A stretch of DNA of 64,000 bases from Gemmatimonadota bacterium. Lineage in GTDB: Bacteria > Gemmatimonadota > Gemmatimonadetes > Longimicrobiales > RSA9. This document shows, piece by piece, positions 17,615 to 58,400 of the stretch. A program made the position numbers and the translations under genes. The DNA lies in NCBI GenBank assembly GCA_039715185.1, contig JBDLIA010000006.1, positions 1,736 through 65,735 on the forward strand, read 5' to 3'. A model generated the notes under the pieces. The model was not told where the DNA came from and did not search any database. It saw only the letters and a program-made list of their open reading frames with translations. The stretch's first letter is position 1; every line of letters begins with the position of its first letter.

Positions 17615-17950
17615 ATGACGACCACCCAGCCCCCGGAGCTCACTCTGGCGGAGGCGCAGCGCGAGGTAGACGCGTGGATCGGCCAGTTCCGGGAGGGATA
17701 CTGGCCGCCCCTGGCGAACCTGGCGCGCCTGATCGAGGAAGTGGGCGAACTCGCCCGCGAGGTAAACCACCGCCACGGCCCGAAAAGGAAGCGCGCGGAC
17801 GAGCCGGACGGAGACCTCGCGCTCGAGCTGGGAGACGTGCTGTTCGTGCTGATGGCTCTCGCCAACGAGCAAGGCATCGACCTGGACGACGCGCTACGCC
17901 GCGTGCTCGAGAAGTACCGGGAGCGCGATTCGGGGCGCTGGGAGCGCTAG
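17615..17950 (+). CDS. MazG-like nucleotide pyrophosphohydrolase
   Basis: ATG at 17615 inside ORF 17027..17950. The EEVGELAREV ... ELGDVLFVLMALANEQGIDLDDAL helix pair is typical of small MazG proteins. Confidence 0.8.
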   Translation: MTTTQPPELTLAEAQREVDAWIGQFREGYWPPLANLARLIEEVGELAREVNHRHGPKRKRADEPDGDLALELGDVLFVLMALANEQGIDLDDALRRVLEKYRERDSGRWER

Positions 17951-18114
17951 TGTGCCGGCGCGGAAGTCCCGTGTGCACCGAGGCGCGTGATGCGCCCGCG
18001 GGGCAAGGCGGAACGACGCGCCGTAGCCGTCGCTACGGCAAGGAGTTCCAACGCCGCATCCGCGGGATGCAGCGCGAGCCGAATGCCTACGGGACTTCTG
18101 CAACGGTACGCTAG
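17949..18114. repeat. 166-bp structured repeat element, copy A (identical to 42757-42922)
   Basis: Base-by-base comparison shows 166/166 identity with copy B in the same orientation; the flanks differ immediately. Multiple nested stems. Its first 2 nt are part of the MazG TAG stop codon. Confidence 0.9.
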
Positions 18115-18118
18115 GCCC

Positions 18119-18262
18119 TCAGGCGAAAAAGCTCAGCGCCAACAGGACCGCGCCCACTACCAGCGCGATCTTCGCGAGCGTGAGCAGGGTTCGAATCACG
18201 AACCCCACGACCGCGACTCCGATGAGGACCGCCGCCAGGACCGCCAATGGGCCTATCGTCAT
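18119..18262 (-). CDS. Small (47 aa) hydrophobic membrane protein, below the ORF-track cutoff
   Basis: Translated by hand: MTIGPLAVLAAVLIGVAVVGFVIRTLLTLAKIALVVGAVLLALSFFA. Two predicted TM helices. ATG lies 9 nt downstream of the oxidoreductase stop on the same strand. Confidence 0.4.
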   Translation of the reverse strand: MTIGPLAVLAAVLIGVAVVGFVIRTLLTLAKIALVVGAVLLALSFFA

Positions 18263-24257: not shown

Positions 24258-24851
24258 ATGTCGCAGCTTATCGAGGCCCTGCGCGCCACCCTTCAGGACC
24301 GGCCCGCGCGGACCGTGCACAGACCGGATGGGACCACAGAGGCCGCCGTGGCGCTGCTGCTGCGAGCTACTCCGTCCCTGGAGCTCCTGCTGATCCATCG
24401 CGCCGAGATGGCGGGCGACCCCTGGTCCGGGCACATCGCGTTCCCCGGTGGGAGGCGCGAATCGGCCGACAGCACGCTGCTGGAGACGGCCCTCCGCGAA
24501 TCGGATGAAGAACTGGGAGCCAACGTGTCCCGACTCGGACGGCCCCTCGGCGCCCTTCACGAAATGGCGCCTTCAGCGCGCCGGTTGCCCTCCATCGTCA
24601 TCGCCCCCTTCGTGGTCGCGGTGCCACCGGATCTGCGGCTGCGGCCGGATCCGCGCGAGGTGCAGGAGGCCTTCTGGGCCCCCGTGGCCGACCTGAGAGC
24701 GGAGGCCTCGGCTACCGAGATCGTCCACGGGACCGGCCCCGAAGCGCGCACGTTCCCGGCCATCCGACACGGGCGACACACGGTCTGGGGGCTGACCCTG
24801 GGGGCGCTGTGGGGACTGTTCGACGCGCTCGATGCGGCCGCCGGGGGCTAG
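24258..24851 (+). CDS. Nudix hydrolase, CoA pyrophosphatase-like
   Basis: LLLIHRAEMAGDPWSGHIAFPGG (CoA-type upstream motif) followed by the Nudix box GGRRESADSTLLETALRESDEELG. Confidence 0.75.
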   Translation: MSQLIEALRATLQDRPARTVHRPDGTTEAAVALLLRATPSLELLLIHRAEMAGDPWSGHIAFPGGRRESADSTLLETALRESDEELGANVSRLGRPLGALHEMAPSARRLPSIVIAPFVVAVPPDLRLRPDPREVQEAFWAPVADLRAEASATEIVHGTGPEARTFPAIRHGRHTVWGLTLGALWGLFDALDAAAGG

Positions 24852-25987
24852 AGTGTACCGTTGGAGAAGTCCGTGCGGTGCGCGAGTCCCGGCTGGCGCA
24901 CGCCGGCGCTGAAGCCGTCGAATTCCGCCGCGGGGCCCTCGGGCATGCGCGCGTCCCTGTTCTCCAACGCACGCTCGGCGGCGCGCGCCACTTCCTGGGT
25001 CACCTCTTCCTCGATCGCCTCCAGTCTCTGCCTCGGCACGCCCCGTCCCACGAGCCACTGCTCGTAGAGGCCGATGGGGTCGCGCTTGCCCCACTCGCGG
25101 AACAGCTCGGCGGGAAAAGTACGCCGCGCCTCTGCCTCGTCGTGGGTGGCGTGCCCGCCCATGCGGAAGGTGTCGGCCACGATGATCGTCGGGCCTCCTC
25201 CCGCGCGTGCGCGGTCGGCGGCCACGCGCGTGGCCGCCAGCACGTCCAGCACGTTGTTGCCGTCCACCCGGTCGCCCGCCATGCCGTACATGCGCGGCCA
25301 CGCGTCGAAGTCACCGGCGTGGTGCTGATCGACTCGGGTCCCCAGGGCGACCTGGTTGTTCTGGATGATGAACACGGCCGGCACGGCCTGCACCGCCGCC
25401 AGGTTGAGCCCCTCGTGAACTGTCGCGGTCTTGGTCGCGCCGTCGCCGATCCACGTCAGCGCCACTCGCGGATCTGCGCGATTGCGGAACGCCAGCGCGA
25501 CACCGGTCATGACGGGGACCATGTCGCCCACGTGCGAGATCGGCTGCAGCACCCCACTGGCGGCCGATCCCACGTGCAGGTCGCGCCCCCCGTTGGGCCC
25601 GTCCGCGGTGCCCAGGTAGCCGGCGAAGAGATCCTCCAGGCGCATGCCCATCTCGTGGCACGCGCCGGCGTTGCGGATCATCGGAGCGACGACATCGCGC
25701 TCGCGATCCAGCGCGTGCACGGCGCCCACCGTCACCGCTTCCTCACCCGTCCCCAGCCACGCCTTGGAGATGACGCCGCGCCGCACCCAGCGCTTCAACT
25801 CGGTGTCGTGGGTGCGATTGCGCACCATGCCGGCGTACAGGTCCAGGAACTCCTGCGGCTCCAGCGCGGAGATCACGGACCGGCGCGACGGGTTCTCGTC
25901 GAGCGCCCGTCCGTACGCCAGGGTCAGCGCGGGATCGGGCTCCCAATCCACGTACTCGGGCGGATCGAAAGGGGGGTATCTGCGCAT
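24848..25987 (-). CDS. Thiamine-diphosphate-dependent 2-oxoacid dehydrogenase E1 alpha subunit
   Basis: GTGEEAVTVG, IGDGATKTATVHEGLNLAA and FIIQNNQVALGT are typical of E1 alpha. No beta subunit is adjacent. Confidence 0.8.
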   Translation of the reverse strand: MRRYPPFDPPEYVDWEPDPALTLAYGRALDENPSRRSVISALEPQEFLDLYAGMVRNRTHDTELKRWVRRGVISKAWLGTGEEAVTVGAVHALDRERDVVAPMIRNAGACHEMGMRLEDLFAGYLGTADGPNGGRDLHVGSAASGVLQPISHVGDMVPVMTGVALAFRNRADPRVALTWIGDGATKTATVHEGLNLAAVQAVPAVFIIQNNQVALGTRVDQHHAGDFDAWPRMYGMAGDRVDGNNVLDVLAATRVAADRARAGGGPTIIVADTFRMGGHATHDEAEARRTFPAELFREWGKRDPIGLYEQWLVGRGVPRQRLEAIEEEVTQEVARAAERALENRDARMPEGPAAEFDGFSAGVRQPGLAHRTDFSNGTL

Positions 25988-42418: not shown

Positions 42419-42562
42419 AGAGTGCCTCCTGCGGGGTGGATGCAGGCCTCACGCGCGCAGGCGCGCGGGAGCCTGTTGAAACTGACGGCCATCGTCATGG
42501 ACCGTATGATCGATCGACTGTGTATACCGCGCGGCGGATTTTCGGCCGCAAGCGAATCCGAC

Positions 42563-42591: not shown

Positions 42592-42756
42592 GAGTGCGTA
42601 ACCTATCTATTTAACTGCAACTTGCGCGGGTGCGATCCCCGGACTTCGTACGCCCCGCGTCCGCCTGAGACAGACTCACCGGAACGTGTACTGGAGAACG
42701 ACCGAGCGCCCCCACACGTGACGCCTCCCGGTCAGGGACTTGTCAGAGAAGTATCG

Positions 42757-42922
42757 AGTGTGCCGGCGCGGAAGTCCCGTGTGCACCGAGGCGCGTGATG
42801 CGCCCGCGGGGCAAGGCGGAACGACGCGCCGTAGCCGTCGCTACGGCAAGGAGTTCCAACGCCGCATCCGCGGGATGCAGCGCGAGCCGAATGCCTACGG
42901 GACTTCTGCAACGGTACGCTAG
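42757..42922. repeat. 166-bp structured repeat element, copy B (identical to 17949-18114)
   Basis: 166/166 identity with copy A in the same orientation. Its last nucleotides (cta, 42919-42921) are the complement of the trpE TAG stop codon. Confidence 0.9.
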
Positions 42923-44421
42923 CGGCCGGAGCGCTCGAGGGCGGCCGCGACGCGGAGCAGCGCGCGCGCCTTGGCGAGCGTCTCGTCGTACTCGCGATCG
43001 GGATCCGAGTCGATCACGATCCCCGCCCCCGCCTGCACCGAAGCGACGCCCGCCGAAACGGTCATCGTGCGGATGGCGATGGCCGTGTCCATCACCGCCC
43101 CTCCGTAGCCGATGTAACCGATGGCGCCGGCGTAGGGCCCACGTCTGGTGGGTTCCAGCTCGTCGATGATCTCCATCGCCCGCACCTTGGGCGCGCCGGA
43201 CACCGTGCCGGCCGGGAAGCACGCGCGTAGCACGTCCAGCGCGTCCAGGTCGGAGCGGAGCGCGCCCTCCACCTGGCTCACGAGGTGCAGGACGTGGCTG
43301 TAGCGCTCCACGTCGCGCAGCCTGGTCACCCGGACGGATCCGTGGTCGGCGACGCGGCCCACGTCGTTGCGGCCCAGGTCGACGAGCATGAGGTGCTCGG
43401 CGAGCTCCTTGGGGTCGCCCCTCAGCTCTTCCTCCAGGCGGGCGTCTTCCGCCGCCGAGCCGCCGCGCGGTCGCGTCCCCGCGATGGGGCGCACCGTGAC
43501 CACACCGCCCTCGAGCCGCACCATGACCTCGGGCGAAGAGCCGACGATGGCCATGCCGTCCAGGTCCAGGTAGAACAGGTACGGCGAGGGGTTCGTGGTC
43601 CTCAGCAGCCGGTAGGCGTCGAGGGGCTCCGCCGTGAGCGGCATGGTCAGCCGTTGCGACAGCACCACCTGGTACGCGTCTCCCTGGGCGATGTAGGCGC
43701 GCACGCGCTGGACCGCCTCCTTGAAGCGCTCGCGCGTAAAGGTGGACCGGAAGGCGGCGTCCGCGTCCTCAGCGCGCAGCTCCAGAGGAGGCAGGTCGGG
43801 CCCCGACTCCAGCCGGCCTATCGTCTCCTCGATCGTCTCGACCGCGTCGTCGTAAAGGCGCCGCAGGTCGGCGCCGTCCGGATCGCCGGAGGCGTCGACC
43901 AACCGAATCGCGCGCGCGCGGCCGAACAGGTTGTCGATCGCGACGACGATGTCGGTCAGCATGAAGACGCCGTCGGGGATACCGGCGTCGTCCGGCGGCG
44001 CGGCCGGCAGCCGTTCGATGTAGCGGACCGCGTCGTACGCGAGGAAGCCGACCAGGCCGCCCAGGAACCTGGGCAGCCCTTCGACCTGAACTGGCGACAG
44101 GGTACCGGCCAGCGAGGTCAGCTCGGCCAGCGGGTCTTGCAGTACCATGGCGGGGCCCCAACCCTCAGCGGGCGTCCAGGCGCGCACCGCGCCGCCCGGA
44201 TCGACGCGCCAGGCGGCGCGCGGCTCGGTGCCCAGAAAGGTGTAACGGGCCCACGTCTCGCCGCCGACGACGGATTCGAACAGGAATCCGAACGGCGGGC
44301 GCGCGACGCGCCTGTACGCGCCTACGGCGGTATCCCTGTCGAACAGGAATTCGCGCCAGACGGGGATCAGGTCTCCCCTCTCGCGCAGCGCGAGGAAGTC
44401 GTCGAAACTCGGGCCTATCAC
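42919..44421 (-). CDS. trpE: Anthranilate synthase component I
   Basis: 500 aa. LFESVVGGETWARYTFLG, VTVRPIAGTRPRG, HLMLVDLGRNDVGRV, GTVSGAPKVRAMEIIDELE and GAGIVIDSDP are canonical TrpE motifs. Confidence 0.9.
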   Translation of the reverse strand: MIGPSFDDFLALRERGDLIPVWREFLFDRDTAVGAYRRVARPPFGFLFESVVGGETWARYTFLGTEPRAAWRVDPGGAVRAWTPAEGWGPAMVLQDPLAELTSLAGTLSPVQVEGLPRFLGGLVGFLAYDAVRYIERLPAAPPDDAGIPDGVFMLTDIVVAIDNLFGRARAIRLVDASGDPDGADLRRLYDDAVETIEETIGRLESGPDLPPLELRAEDADAAFRSTFTRERFKEAVQRVRAYIAQGDAYQVVLSQRLTMPLTAEPLDAYRLLRTTNPSPYLFYLDLDGMAIVGSSPEVMVRLEGGVVTVRPIAGTRPRGGSAAEDARLEEELRGDPKELAEHLMLVDLGRNDVGRVADHGSVRVTRLRDVERYSHVLHLVSQVEGALRSDLDALDVLRACFPAGTVSGAPKVRAMEIIDELEPTRRGPYAGAIGYIGYGGAVMDTAIAIRTMTVSAGVASVQAGAGIVIDSDPDREYDETLAKARALLRVAAALERSGR

Positions 44422-58199: not shown

Positions 58200-58400
58200 G
58201 GGTCGGCCCCGGCGCTGAAAGCCGGAGCCGATGACAGACGAGAGTACGCGGGCGGTGCCAAACGGAAGCCGGTGAGATTCCGGCGCGGCCCCGCCACTGT
58301 GAGAGGCCCCGGCAACTGCGCCGGGCCAGGCCCGTTCAGCGAGCCACTGGAGCGAGATCTCCGGGAAGGCGAGCGGCGCCGCCTCGAGCCAGGAGACCGG
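58200..58400 (+). promoter_or_regulatory. Cobalamin (B12) riboswitch
   Basis: GGTGCCAAACGGAAGCCGGTGAGATTCCGGCGCGGCCCCGCCACTGTGA core, plus the B12 box AGCCACTGG...GGGAAGGC. Located 5' of B12-type uptake genes. Confidence 0.85.

Follow-up and report, generated by a model that had tools for sequence, protein, structure and literature searches.

Several families of short bacterial repeats derive from insertion sequences (IS) of the IS630 family, including the Correia/NEMIS elements of Neisseria, RUP of Streptococcus pneumoniae and Nezha of cyanobacteria, and the Stowaway elements of plants are of the same kind. [quoted passage not shown] Palindromes of the REP/BIME and ERIC type are likewise intergenic and co-transcribed and can stabilise upstream mRNA, but they display neither a TA duplication nor terminal repeats matching those of an insertion sequence. 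Here we describe a 162-bp element found twice in a 64,000-nucleotide stretch of a Gemmatimonadota genome (assembly GCA_039715185.1, contig JBDLIA010000006.1, positions 1,736 to 65,735; hereafter the window), which we interpret, with a probability of roughly 85%, as a non-autonomous MITE of the IS630/Tc1-mariner type that would be mobilised in trans by a DDE transposase encoded elsewhere in the genome. Its size, lack of coding capacity, terminal repeats, TA duplication, whole-element hairpin and position beside genes are those of Correia/NEMIS, RUP and Nezha. Unlike them, it is of unrelated sequence, resides in a host of 70% G+C, was inserted at its clean site into CTAG rather than a plain TA, has G...C termini that remake TAG stops on both sides, and has an apical motif that is kept across phyla. 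With the REP/BIME and ERIC palindromes it has its intergenic location and palindromic form in common; the difference is a clean TA-duplicating insertion, seen by comparison with empty sites.

The element was recognised as the single long direct repeat in the window, 166 nt at 100% identity and in the same orientation at 17949-18114 and 42757-42922. Its borders, read from the sequence and from an empty site in a relative, define an element proper of 162 nt (GTGTGCC...GGTACGC). Searches with nhmmer and blastn found no third full copy within the 64-kb window, which holds two intact copies and one repeat-like relic. As both copies are identical, the insertions are recent. The terminal inverted repeats are imperfect: GTGTGCCGGCGCGGAAGTCCCGT and the opposite end read as its reverse complement, GCGTACCGTTGCAGAAGTCCCGT, agree at 18 of 23 positions when recounted by hand. 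The repeat reads GTGTGCCGG...GGAAGTCCCGT and is bipartite, with a terminal GTGT and a subterminal GGAAGTCCCGT. On the plus strand the element is predicted to form one rod hairpin spanning its entire length (-115.7 kcal/mol, z = -7.25 versus shuffled sequences), the minus-strand fold being weaker (-98.5 kcal/mol), and its wobble pairs, five G-U on one strand and four on the other, are uninformative as to strand. Its G+C content is similar to that of the window (70%). A single protein query made by joining its four open frames, intended to reveal other copies over which ORFs had been called spuriously, had no match among 5.8 billion proteins, and the element is non-coding.

Copy A separates the gene of a MazG-family pyrophosphohydrolase from a convergent 47-aa membrane open reading frame (ORF) with its stop at 18119-18121 on the minus strand; only 4 nt would lie between the two stops if the element were removed. 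An initial annotation, made from the sequence of the window alone, had called the ends and the CTAG/TA context of the element MITE-like, gave the same 18/23 agreement between the terminal repeats, and predicted from the TA on either side of copy A that the empty site would read gcgCTAGgccc. A JGI metagenome contig (L019) in which MazG is 95% identical, and in which the 47-aa gene and an alcohol dehydrogenase are also present, agrees with that prediction in having a single CTAG at the same spot. The empty site of this relative is aacgCTAGgcgc, i.e. GGGAACGC TAG GCGC TCA GATG, and the filled site in the window is GGGAGCGC TA (162 nt) TA GGCCC TCA GGCG, with GGCCCTCA as the right flank after the TA. 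The insertion at site A is exact to the base, interrupting a CTAG at its TA and duplicating that TA. Taken alone, the site is equally compatible with a 4-bp duplication of CTAG (CTAG-TGTG...TACG-CTAG). An independent Logan assembly (L018, SRR27843388) shows the same left junction for copy A before breaking off within the repeat, which is behaviour to be expected of a repeat in short-read assembly. This contig (2099-2120) stops 23 nt into the element, earlier than the collapse of a two-copy repeat alone predicts, and the early break may reflect further copies or strain variation in the sample.

Copy B is found directly 3' of trpE (minus strand) and upstream of a TonB-dependent receptor gene. 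Three orthologous trpE-to-TonB-receptor loci (L014, L015 and L017; trpE 79-80% identical) are without the element, and the surrounding intergenic sequence aligns well. As such, relatives offer empty sites for both insertions, a comparison which the initial annotation had proposed, and conservation of the element at the same loci, which it had considered indicative of a functional RNA in place of a mobile element, was not seen in them. The duplication at this site had been described as imperfect, the left flank being GA and only the right one TA, and the sequence confirms this. The nearest two trpE orthologues end in ...ENSLTSP and ...EDSLTSP, 15 codons past a common RVAA, and the window trpE ends 7 codons past it, at 42919-42921 on the minus strand. 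Restoration of the frame requires an ancestral ...CGC TAC GAT..., which places the target TA eight codons inside trpE. It is most likely that copy B entered this TA eight codons before the trpE stop and supplied the gene with a new one, with only the A retained at one flank; the original site was probably CTAC/GTAG. The initial claim that the right TA of copy B forms the trpE stop is upheld by this analysis, with the refinement that the insertion was likely internal to the gene and not at a pre-existing stop. ISY100, a member of the IS630 family, inserts at TA with duplication of the TA, and 3 of 39 of its products carried TA at one flank and a lone A at the opposite one (PMC2170065). Since this minor product class is documented, the A-only flank of copy B fits IS630-family transposition. 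A pre-existing CTAG stop of trpE with a later T-to-G change in the left TA was also entertained and is a less parsimonious, minor alternative, as the conserved in-frame ...SLTSP tail and the A-only products of ISY100 fit an internal TA better.

Two features downstream of trpE deserve mention in their own right. A conserved promoter-like TTGACAC-N17-TAGGCT (approximately 42500-42545, minus strand), common to L014 and L015, precedes the TonB-dependent receptor gene and is intact because it lies downstream of the copy B insertion. Just past copy B, an 18-nt stretch (CTGACAAGTCCCTGACCG; 42729-42746, minus strand) is identical in L014, L015 and L017 even though trpE is only about 80% identical. It holds the direct repeat CCCTGAC-N4-CCCTGAC and the heptamer AAGTCCC, which is also present in the repeat core, and judging from this pattern it may be constrained beyond coding, e.g. 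because a regulator of the downstream receptor gene acts there.

It had also been pointed out at the outset that each copy supplies part of a flanking stop codon, and this is indeed the case: in the MazG TAG (17948-17950) the TA comes from the flank and the G is the element's first base, and the trpE TAG is built in the corresponding manner at the other end of copy B. With G as its first base and C as its last, the element restores C-TA-G at either junction, and as CTAG is palindromic, a TAG results on both strands. There are 22 CTAG sites in the window, four of which are made by the two copies, and about 10 of the 22 are stops of long ORFs with high G+C at third codon positions. Because CTAG is rare at 70% G+C and about half of its occurrences are gene stops, the element tends to land on stops. 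An element targeting CTAG would be expected to land on stop codons and to remake them, and at site A the MazG stop is preserved. A stop shared with the element edge is also seen in five related copies, one beside an ABC ATPase gene on a metagenome contig (L004) and four in RefSeq-annotated Streptomyces sequences (L023, L025, L026 and L030). Stop-codon sharing is a property of the family brought about by target choice and probably also by selection against harmful insertions.

These relatives were traced from a scan for the pattern GGAAGTCCCGT-N100-130-ACGGGACTTC over genome contigs and metagenome contigs, two collections that do not include the source genome. The scan returned other palindromic elements with the same subterminal core, of which L002 and L004 proved related. 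In L002 (Streptomyces sp. MspMP-M5; 2326-2502) the repeats are perfect over 28 nt and the flanks read ccCTA/G...C/TAGgg (slashes mark element borders). PLSDB contains repeats of this type, approximately 180 nt in length, in 87 plasmid records (151 places), nearly all of them from Streptomyces. We retrieved 15 Streptomyces copies (in the range L020-L034) and aligned 13 of them. TA is found on both sides in at least 9 of the 15, usually within CTAG, and two copies, L022 (CTA/G...C/TAA) and L033 (CTA/A...T/TAG), favour a 2-bp duplication of TA over a 4-bp duplication of CTAG. The flank pattern that the initial annotation proposed to look for in further copies thus recurs as cCTA/G...C/TAGg in L002 and most of the approximately 15 Streptomyces copies. 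Compensatory double changes affect 36 of the 68 predicted pairs in the 13 aligned copies, and several G-U pairs are kept. The apical motifs ATCGCAAGGCGGAGGG and CCCGACAACGCGGCGAG are conserved among them, and the Streptomyces copies carry a side hairpin with a triloop (C-GAA-G or C-GGA-G).

Covariance models were built from the Streptomyces copies alone, one of the full element (R1) and one of the apex only (R2), the latter region being outside the original search key. R1 aligns over the full length of each window copy (plus strand; 22.2 bits, E about 0.016) and scores the L004 element at 55 bits. R2 returns the window apex as its top match in 144 kb (26.8 bits, E = 1e-4) and scores the L004 apex at 26.5 bits. 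Hairpins of Planctomycetaceae that contain the same 11-nt core were matched by neither R1 nor R2, and it follows that a hairpin with this core is insufficient to score. On the evidence of these models, the window element is placed in one family with the Streptomyces plasmid repeat and the element of the unassigned metagenome contig. The L002-type repeats and L004 resemble the window element in their TA/CTAG flanks, their repeat blocks (GTGT and (G/A)AAGTCCCG), their rod hairpin, their apical GC-AAG-GCG ... YAA-CGC-N-GC, and their frequent sharing of a neighbour's TAG stop. Unlike the Streptomyces repeat, the window element has neither the GAA-triloop side hairpin of the left arm nor the four additional terminal bases (GGGC); the two belong to different phyla, and their similarity is distant (22-27 bits). 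A search of the literature (by core sequence, and for Streptomyces, IS630 and MITE) yielded no description of the window family or of the Streptomyces repeat, and the family is apparently undescribed in the literature searched and absent from Rfam.

The pattern matches in Planctomycetaceae, together with L006-L009 and L012, had only the search key in common with the element and were set aside; a repeat-based pattern gave one match in viral contigs, which was judged to be due to chance; and with either the window element or that of L004 as query, blastn against plasmids gave chance fragments only. The Planctomycetaceae sequences (L001, L003, L005 and L010, from metagenome-assembled genomes (MAGs) or metagenomes) represent a different hairpin repeat of approximately 190 nt with the same GGAAGTCCCGT core, located near contig ends. 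L007 and L009 carry tandem repeats of approximately 43 nt that contain GGAAGTCCCGTCGGGGGG and have no R1 or R2 match.

Among known insertion sequences, the closest to the window element are IS630 (Shigella), ISY100 (Synechocystis) and IS870-type elements. Elements of the IS630 type duplicate TA, preferentially within 5'-CTAG-3' (Tenzen and Ohtsubo 1991, as cited in PMC2170065). The initial annotation had suggested a search for such an element with ends matching those of the repeat, and two annotated IS630-family elements of 1154 bp on Streptomyces plasmids, retrieved by tblastn (L038, 427-1580, and L040), answer to this description and are the nearest actual examples. Both have perfect or near-perfect repeats, TA/GTGTCCTGCGCCGGAGATCCGT, inside CTAG (also given as TA/GTGTCCTGCGCCGGAGATCCGTCGTT), as compared with TA/GTGTGCCGGCGCGGAAGTCCCGT for the window element, which is seven times shorter and has no transposase gene. 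Anchored at the terminus, the left repeat of the window element agrees with that of L038 at 19 of 27 positions (3 of 5000 shuffles were as good), the Streptomyces MITE repeat at 20 of 27 (0 of 5000), and the L004 repeat at 17 of 27. The interior of the element has no similarity to the Streptomyces IS630 elements beyond the repeats, and we have rejected the possibility that it is a deletion derivative of them. The annotated transposase ORF of L038 runs through its right terminal repeat and ends at a TAG composed of the duplicated TA and a flanking G. The transposase ORF of IS870 has been reported likewise to end at a TAG formed with the target. One Streptomyces locus (L024, 2364-4375) has an IS630-family element, an IS5-like element of approximately 870 bp with ends TA/AAGGTTGTTGCAGAA, and one hairpin-repeat copy in direct succession, each abutting the next at a TA, an arrangement suggestive of a hot spot for insertion.

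Small non-coding size, terminal repeats, a TA duplication with its empty site, a CTAG target and IS630-like ends are all observed in the window element. It is reasonable to postulate that a transposase would bind the bipartite repeat through the terminal GTGT and the subterminal GGAAGTCCCGT, that the element would be excised by double-strand cuts, and that its 3' ends would then be joined to staggered positions at the target TA. As no IS630- or IS5-type transposase is found in the window, the element is non-autonomous, as had been proposed originally. The facts stated in the initial annotation proved correct throughout, and those of its suggested checks that were run came out in favour of mobility.

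A number of observations weigh against this assignment. Copy B lacks a perfect duplication, its flanks being A and TA, and no more than two intact copies can be seen in the 64-kb window. The exact family was not found in the pattern scans of the genome and metagenome collections, from which the source genome is absent, and the tblastn search with IS630- and IS5-type transposases, which covered the 64-kb window only, found no cognate transposase. The similarity to IS630 ends is partial, the right arm agreeing at only 15 of 27 positions versus 19 of 27 for the left arm. A sequence-only nhmmer profile of the Streptomyces copies misses the window copies, so the relationship is distant and the family link rests on the structure-aware models together with the end and apex motifs; the E-value of R1 is itself marginal and the model calibration rough. 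Last, a conserved, covarying interior would be unneeded for simple mobilisation in trans.

A hairpin of this stability at the 3' end of genes invites an explanation in terms of RNA, namely that the element is a functional structured module (a stabiliser of the 3' untranslated region, a bidirectional terminator or a small RNA) spread or kept for that role, with its mobility being incidental. The initial annotation had offered a stabiliser or terminator as its alternative, and the strong fold (the plus strand being the more stable of the two), the location of both copies directly 3' of genes, and the compensatory pairs, conserved G-U pairs and conserved apical internal-loop motif of the Streptomyces family can all be cited in its favour. 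However, neither copy is accompanied by a T-run terminator-like site or a promoter signal; the element has no match in Rfam 15 at gathering threshold or at E <= 10, related loci giving spurious sub-threshold matches only; it is absent from the orthologous loci of relatives; and it has no uniform orientation with respect to the upstream gene (sense at MazG, L026 and L004; antisense at trpE, L023, L025 and L030). Furthermore, covariation of the arms is also expected of a foldback transposon. We therefore consider an RNA role improbable as the identity of the element, and it is possible that stabilisation by a 3' hairpin arises as a by-product. A MITE of another DDE superfamily targeting CTAG or TA, such as the IS5 family (IS427, IS1031 and IS5 subgroups, with duplications of 2-4 bp) or a PIF/Harbinger-like group, for which duplications of 3-bp TNA or 4-bp CTAG/YTAR are expected, would account for site A by a 4-bp CTAG duplication, and there is an IS5-like element with TA/TAA flanks beside one Streptomyces copy, the terminal repeat of which has GTTGCAGAA in common with the right arm of the window element. 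This 9-nt match is found at a different distance from the end, however, the L022 and L033 flanks fit a 2-bp TA and not a 4-bp duplication, and it is annotated IS630-family elements that the ends resemble most, all of which renders such an origin still less probable.

A hairpin moved as a single strand by an HUH or tyrosine-type enzyme (REP/RAYT, or derived from IS200/IS605) would have been inserted 3' of CTA, with its right end mimicking a duplication. The whole element is one hairpin, CTA precedes both copies on the minus strand, and triloops such as that of the Streptomyces side hairpin are typical of stable DNA mini-hairpins. This scenario is nevertheless very unlikely, given that symmetric inverted repeats begin immediately after the TA on both sides in place of two different subterminal hairpins, that the same ends and flanks occur in IS630-family elements, and that no RAYT or TnpA gene was seen. 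An artefact of assembly or a chimeric join might be suspected, as the source is a MAG and repeats can mislead assemblers, but each copy lies in unique sequence that carries genes and keeps synteny with relatives to its left and right, and with the left junction of copy A reproduced in the independent Logan assembly, we regard this as scarcely credible.

In mechanism and anatomy, then, the IS630/Tc1-mariner-type MITE described here is of an ordinary kind. The one surprising aspect is its conserved, covarying interior, common to a Gemmatimonadota genome, Streptomyces plasmids and a metagenome contig. A tentative and, in our estimation, rather unlikely extension is that the window element, the approximately 180-nt Streptomyces repeat and L004 constitute one ancient or horizontally spread superfamily of hairpin MITEs with an interior that is itself under selection, as the extensive compensatory covariation and the conserved apical loop would suggest. 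If so, the interior would have a function beyond that of the repeats, perhaps as a site to which a protein of the host or a transposase binds, as a hairpin that aids in drawing the ends together, or in a role of structured RNA or single-stranded DNA at the 3' ends of genes, and the remaking of stop codons would then have evolved as a 'harmless landing' design in place of a by-product.

The IS630-type assignment provides an example of a recently active MITE, with a base-exact empty site, in a phylum known mostly from MAGs. It also accounts for the odd stop-codon pattern, in that high-G+C genomes have few CTAG sites and these are largely TAG stops, and it indicates that such elements can truncate genes benignly, as has probably occurred with the trpE tail. 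For annotation, elements of this kind may define or shift stop codons, break short-read assemblies (as in L018), and give mRNAs very stable hairpins at the 3' end. The link to the abundant plasmid repeat of Streptomyces, with its conserved apex, represents a modest lead for transposon biology.

Table. Positions in the window of the two element copies, their parts and flanks, the adjoining genes and a probable relic.
Feature	Position	Strand	Remarks
MazG-family pyrophosphohydrolase gene	17615..17950	+	Pfam MazG; protein P0121 100% identical
Left TA of target-site duplication, copy A	17948..17949		also T and A of MazG-like TAG stop; single TA within CTAG in L019
Putative MITE, copy A	17950..18111	+	162 nt, 100% identical to copy B; absent at orthologous L019 site; R1 match 22.2 bits end to end
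Left terminal inverted repeat, copy A, GTGTGCCGGCGCGGAAGTCCCGT	17950..17972	+	18/23 vs right repeat; 19/27 vs IS630-family L038 terminal repeat
Apical module, copy A, conserved GCAAGGCGGA ... CAACGCCGC motif	17994..18066	+	R2 match
Right terminal inverted repeat, copy A, ACGGGACTTCTGCAACGGTACGC	18089..18111	+	
Right TA of target-site duplication, copy A	18112..18113		
Small membrane ORF, 47 aa	18119..18262	-	conserved, convergent with MazG; 47-aa gene also called in L019
Probable relic of older copy (CTAG, A, then GTGTACCGTTGGAGAAGTCCGT)	24848..24874	+	blastn E = 0.02
Probable cut-off former trpE end	42732..42755	-	GAT ACT TCT CTG ACA AGT CCC TGA = DTSLTSP-stop
Single A left of copy B (TA expected)	42757..42757		GA at 42756-42757
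Putative MITE, copy B	42758..42919	+	162 nt; absent at L014, L015, L017; R1 match; R2 26.8 bits, filters off
Terminal inverted repeats, copy B	42758-42780 and 42897-42919		
Apical module, copy B	42802-42874		
Right TA of copy B	42920..42921		with complement of base 42919 forms present trpE stop TAG, minus strand
trpE (anthranilate synthase component I)	42919..44421	-	ends ...RVAAALERSGR-stop at element edge; P0001 100% identical

The sequence at 24848-24874 is, judged by its resemblance to the element ends, probably the relic of an older copy. Its 22-mer GTGTACCGTTGGAGAAGTCCGT is solo, closely resembles the terminal repeat, and makes up the final 8 codons of a minus-strand E1_dh dehydrogenase gene, outside the Pfam domain. 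The CTAG of the relic comprises the overlapping stops of this gene and of a convergent NUDIX gene (plus strand), both assigned with Pfam. Elsewhere in the window, a cobalamin riboswitch is located at 58264-58397 on the plus strand (Rfam RF00174, 63.9 bits, E = 1.8e-13).

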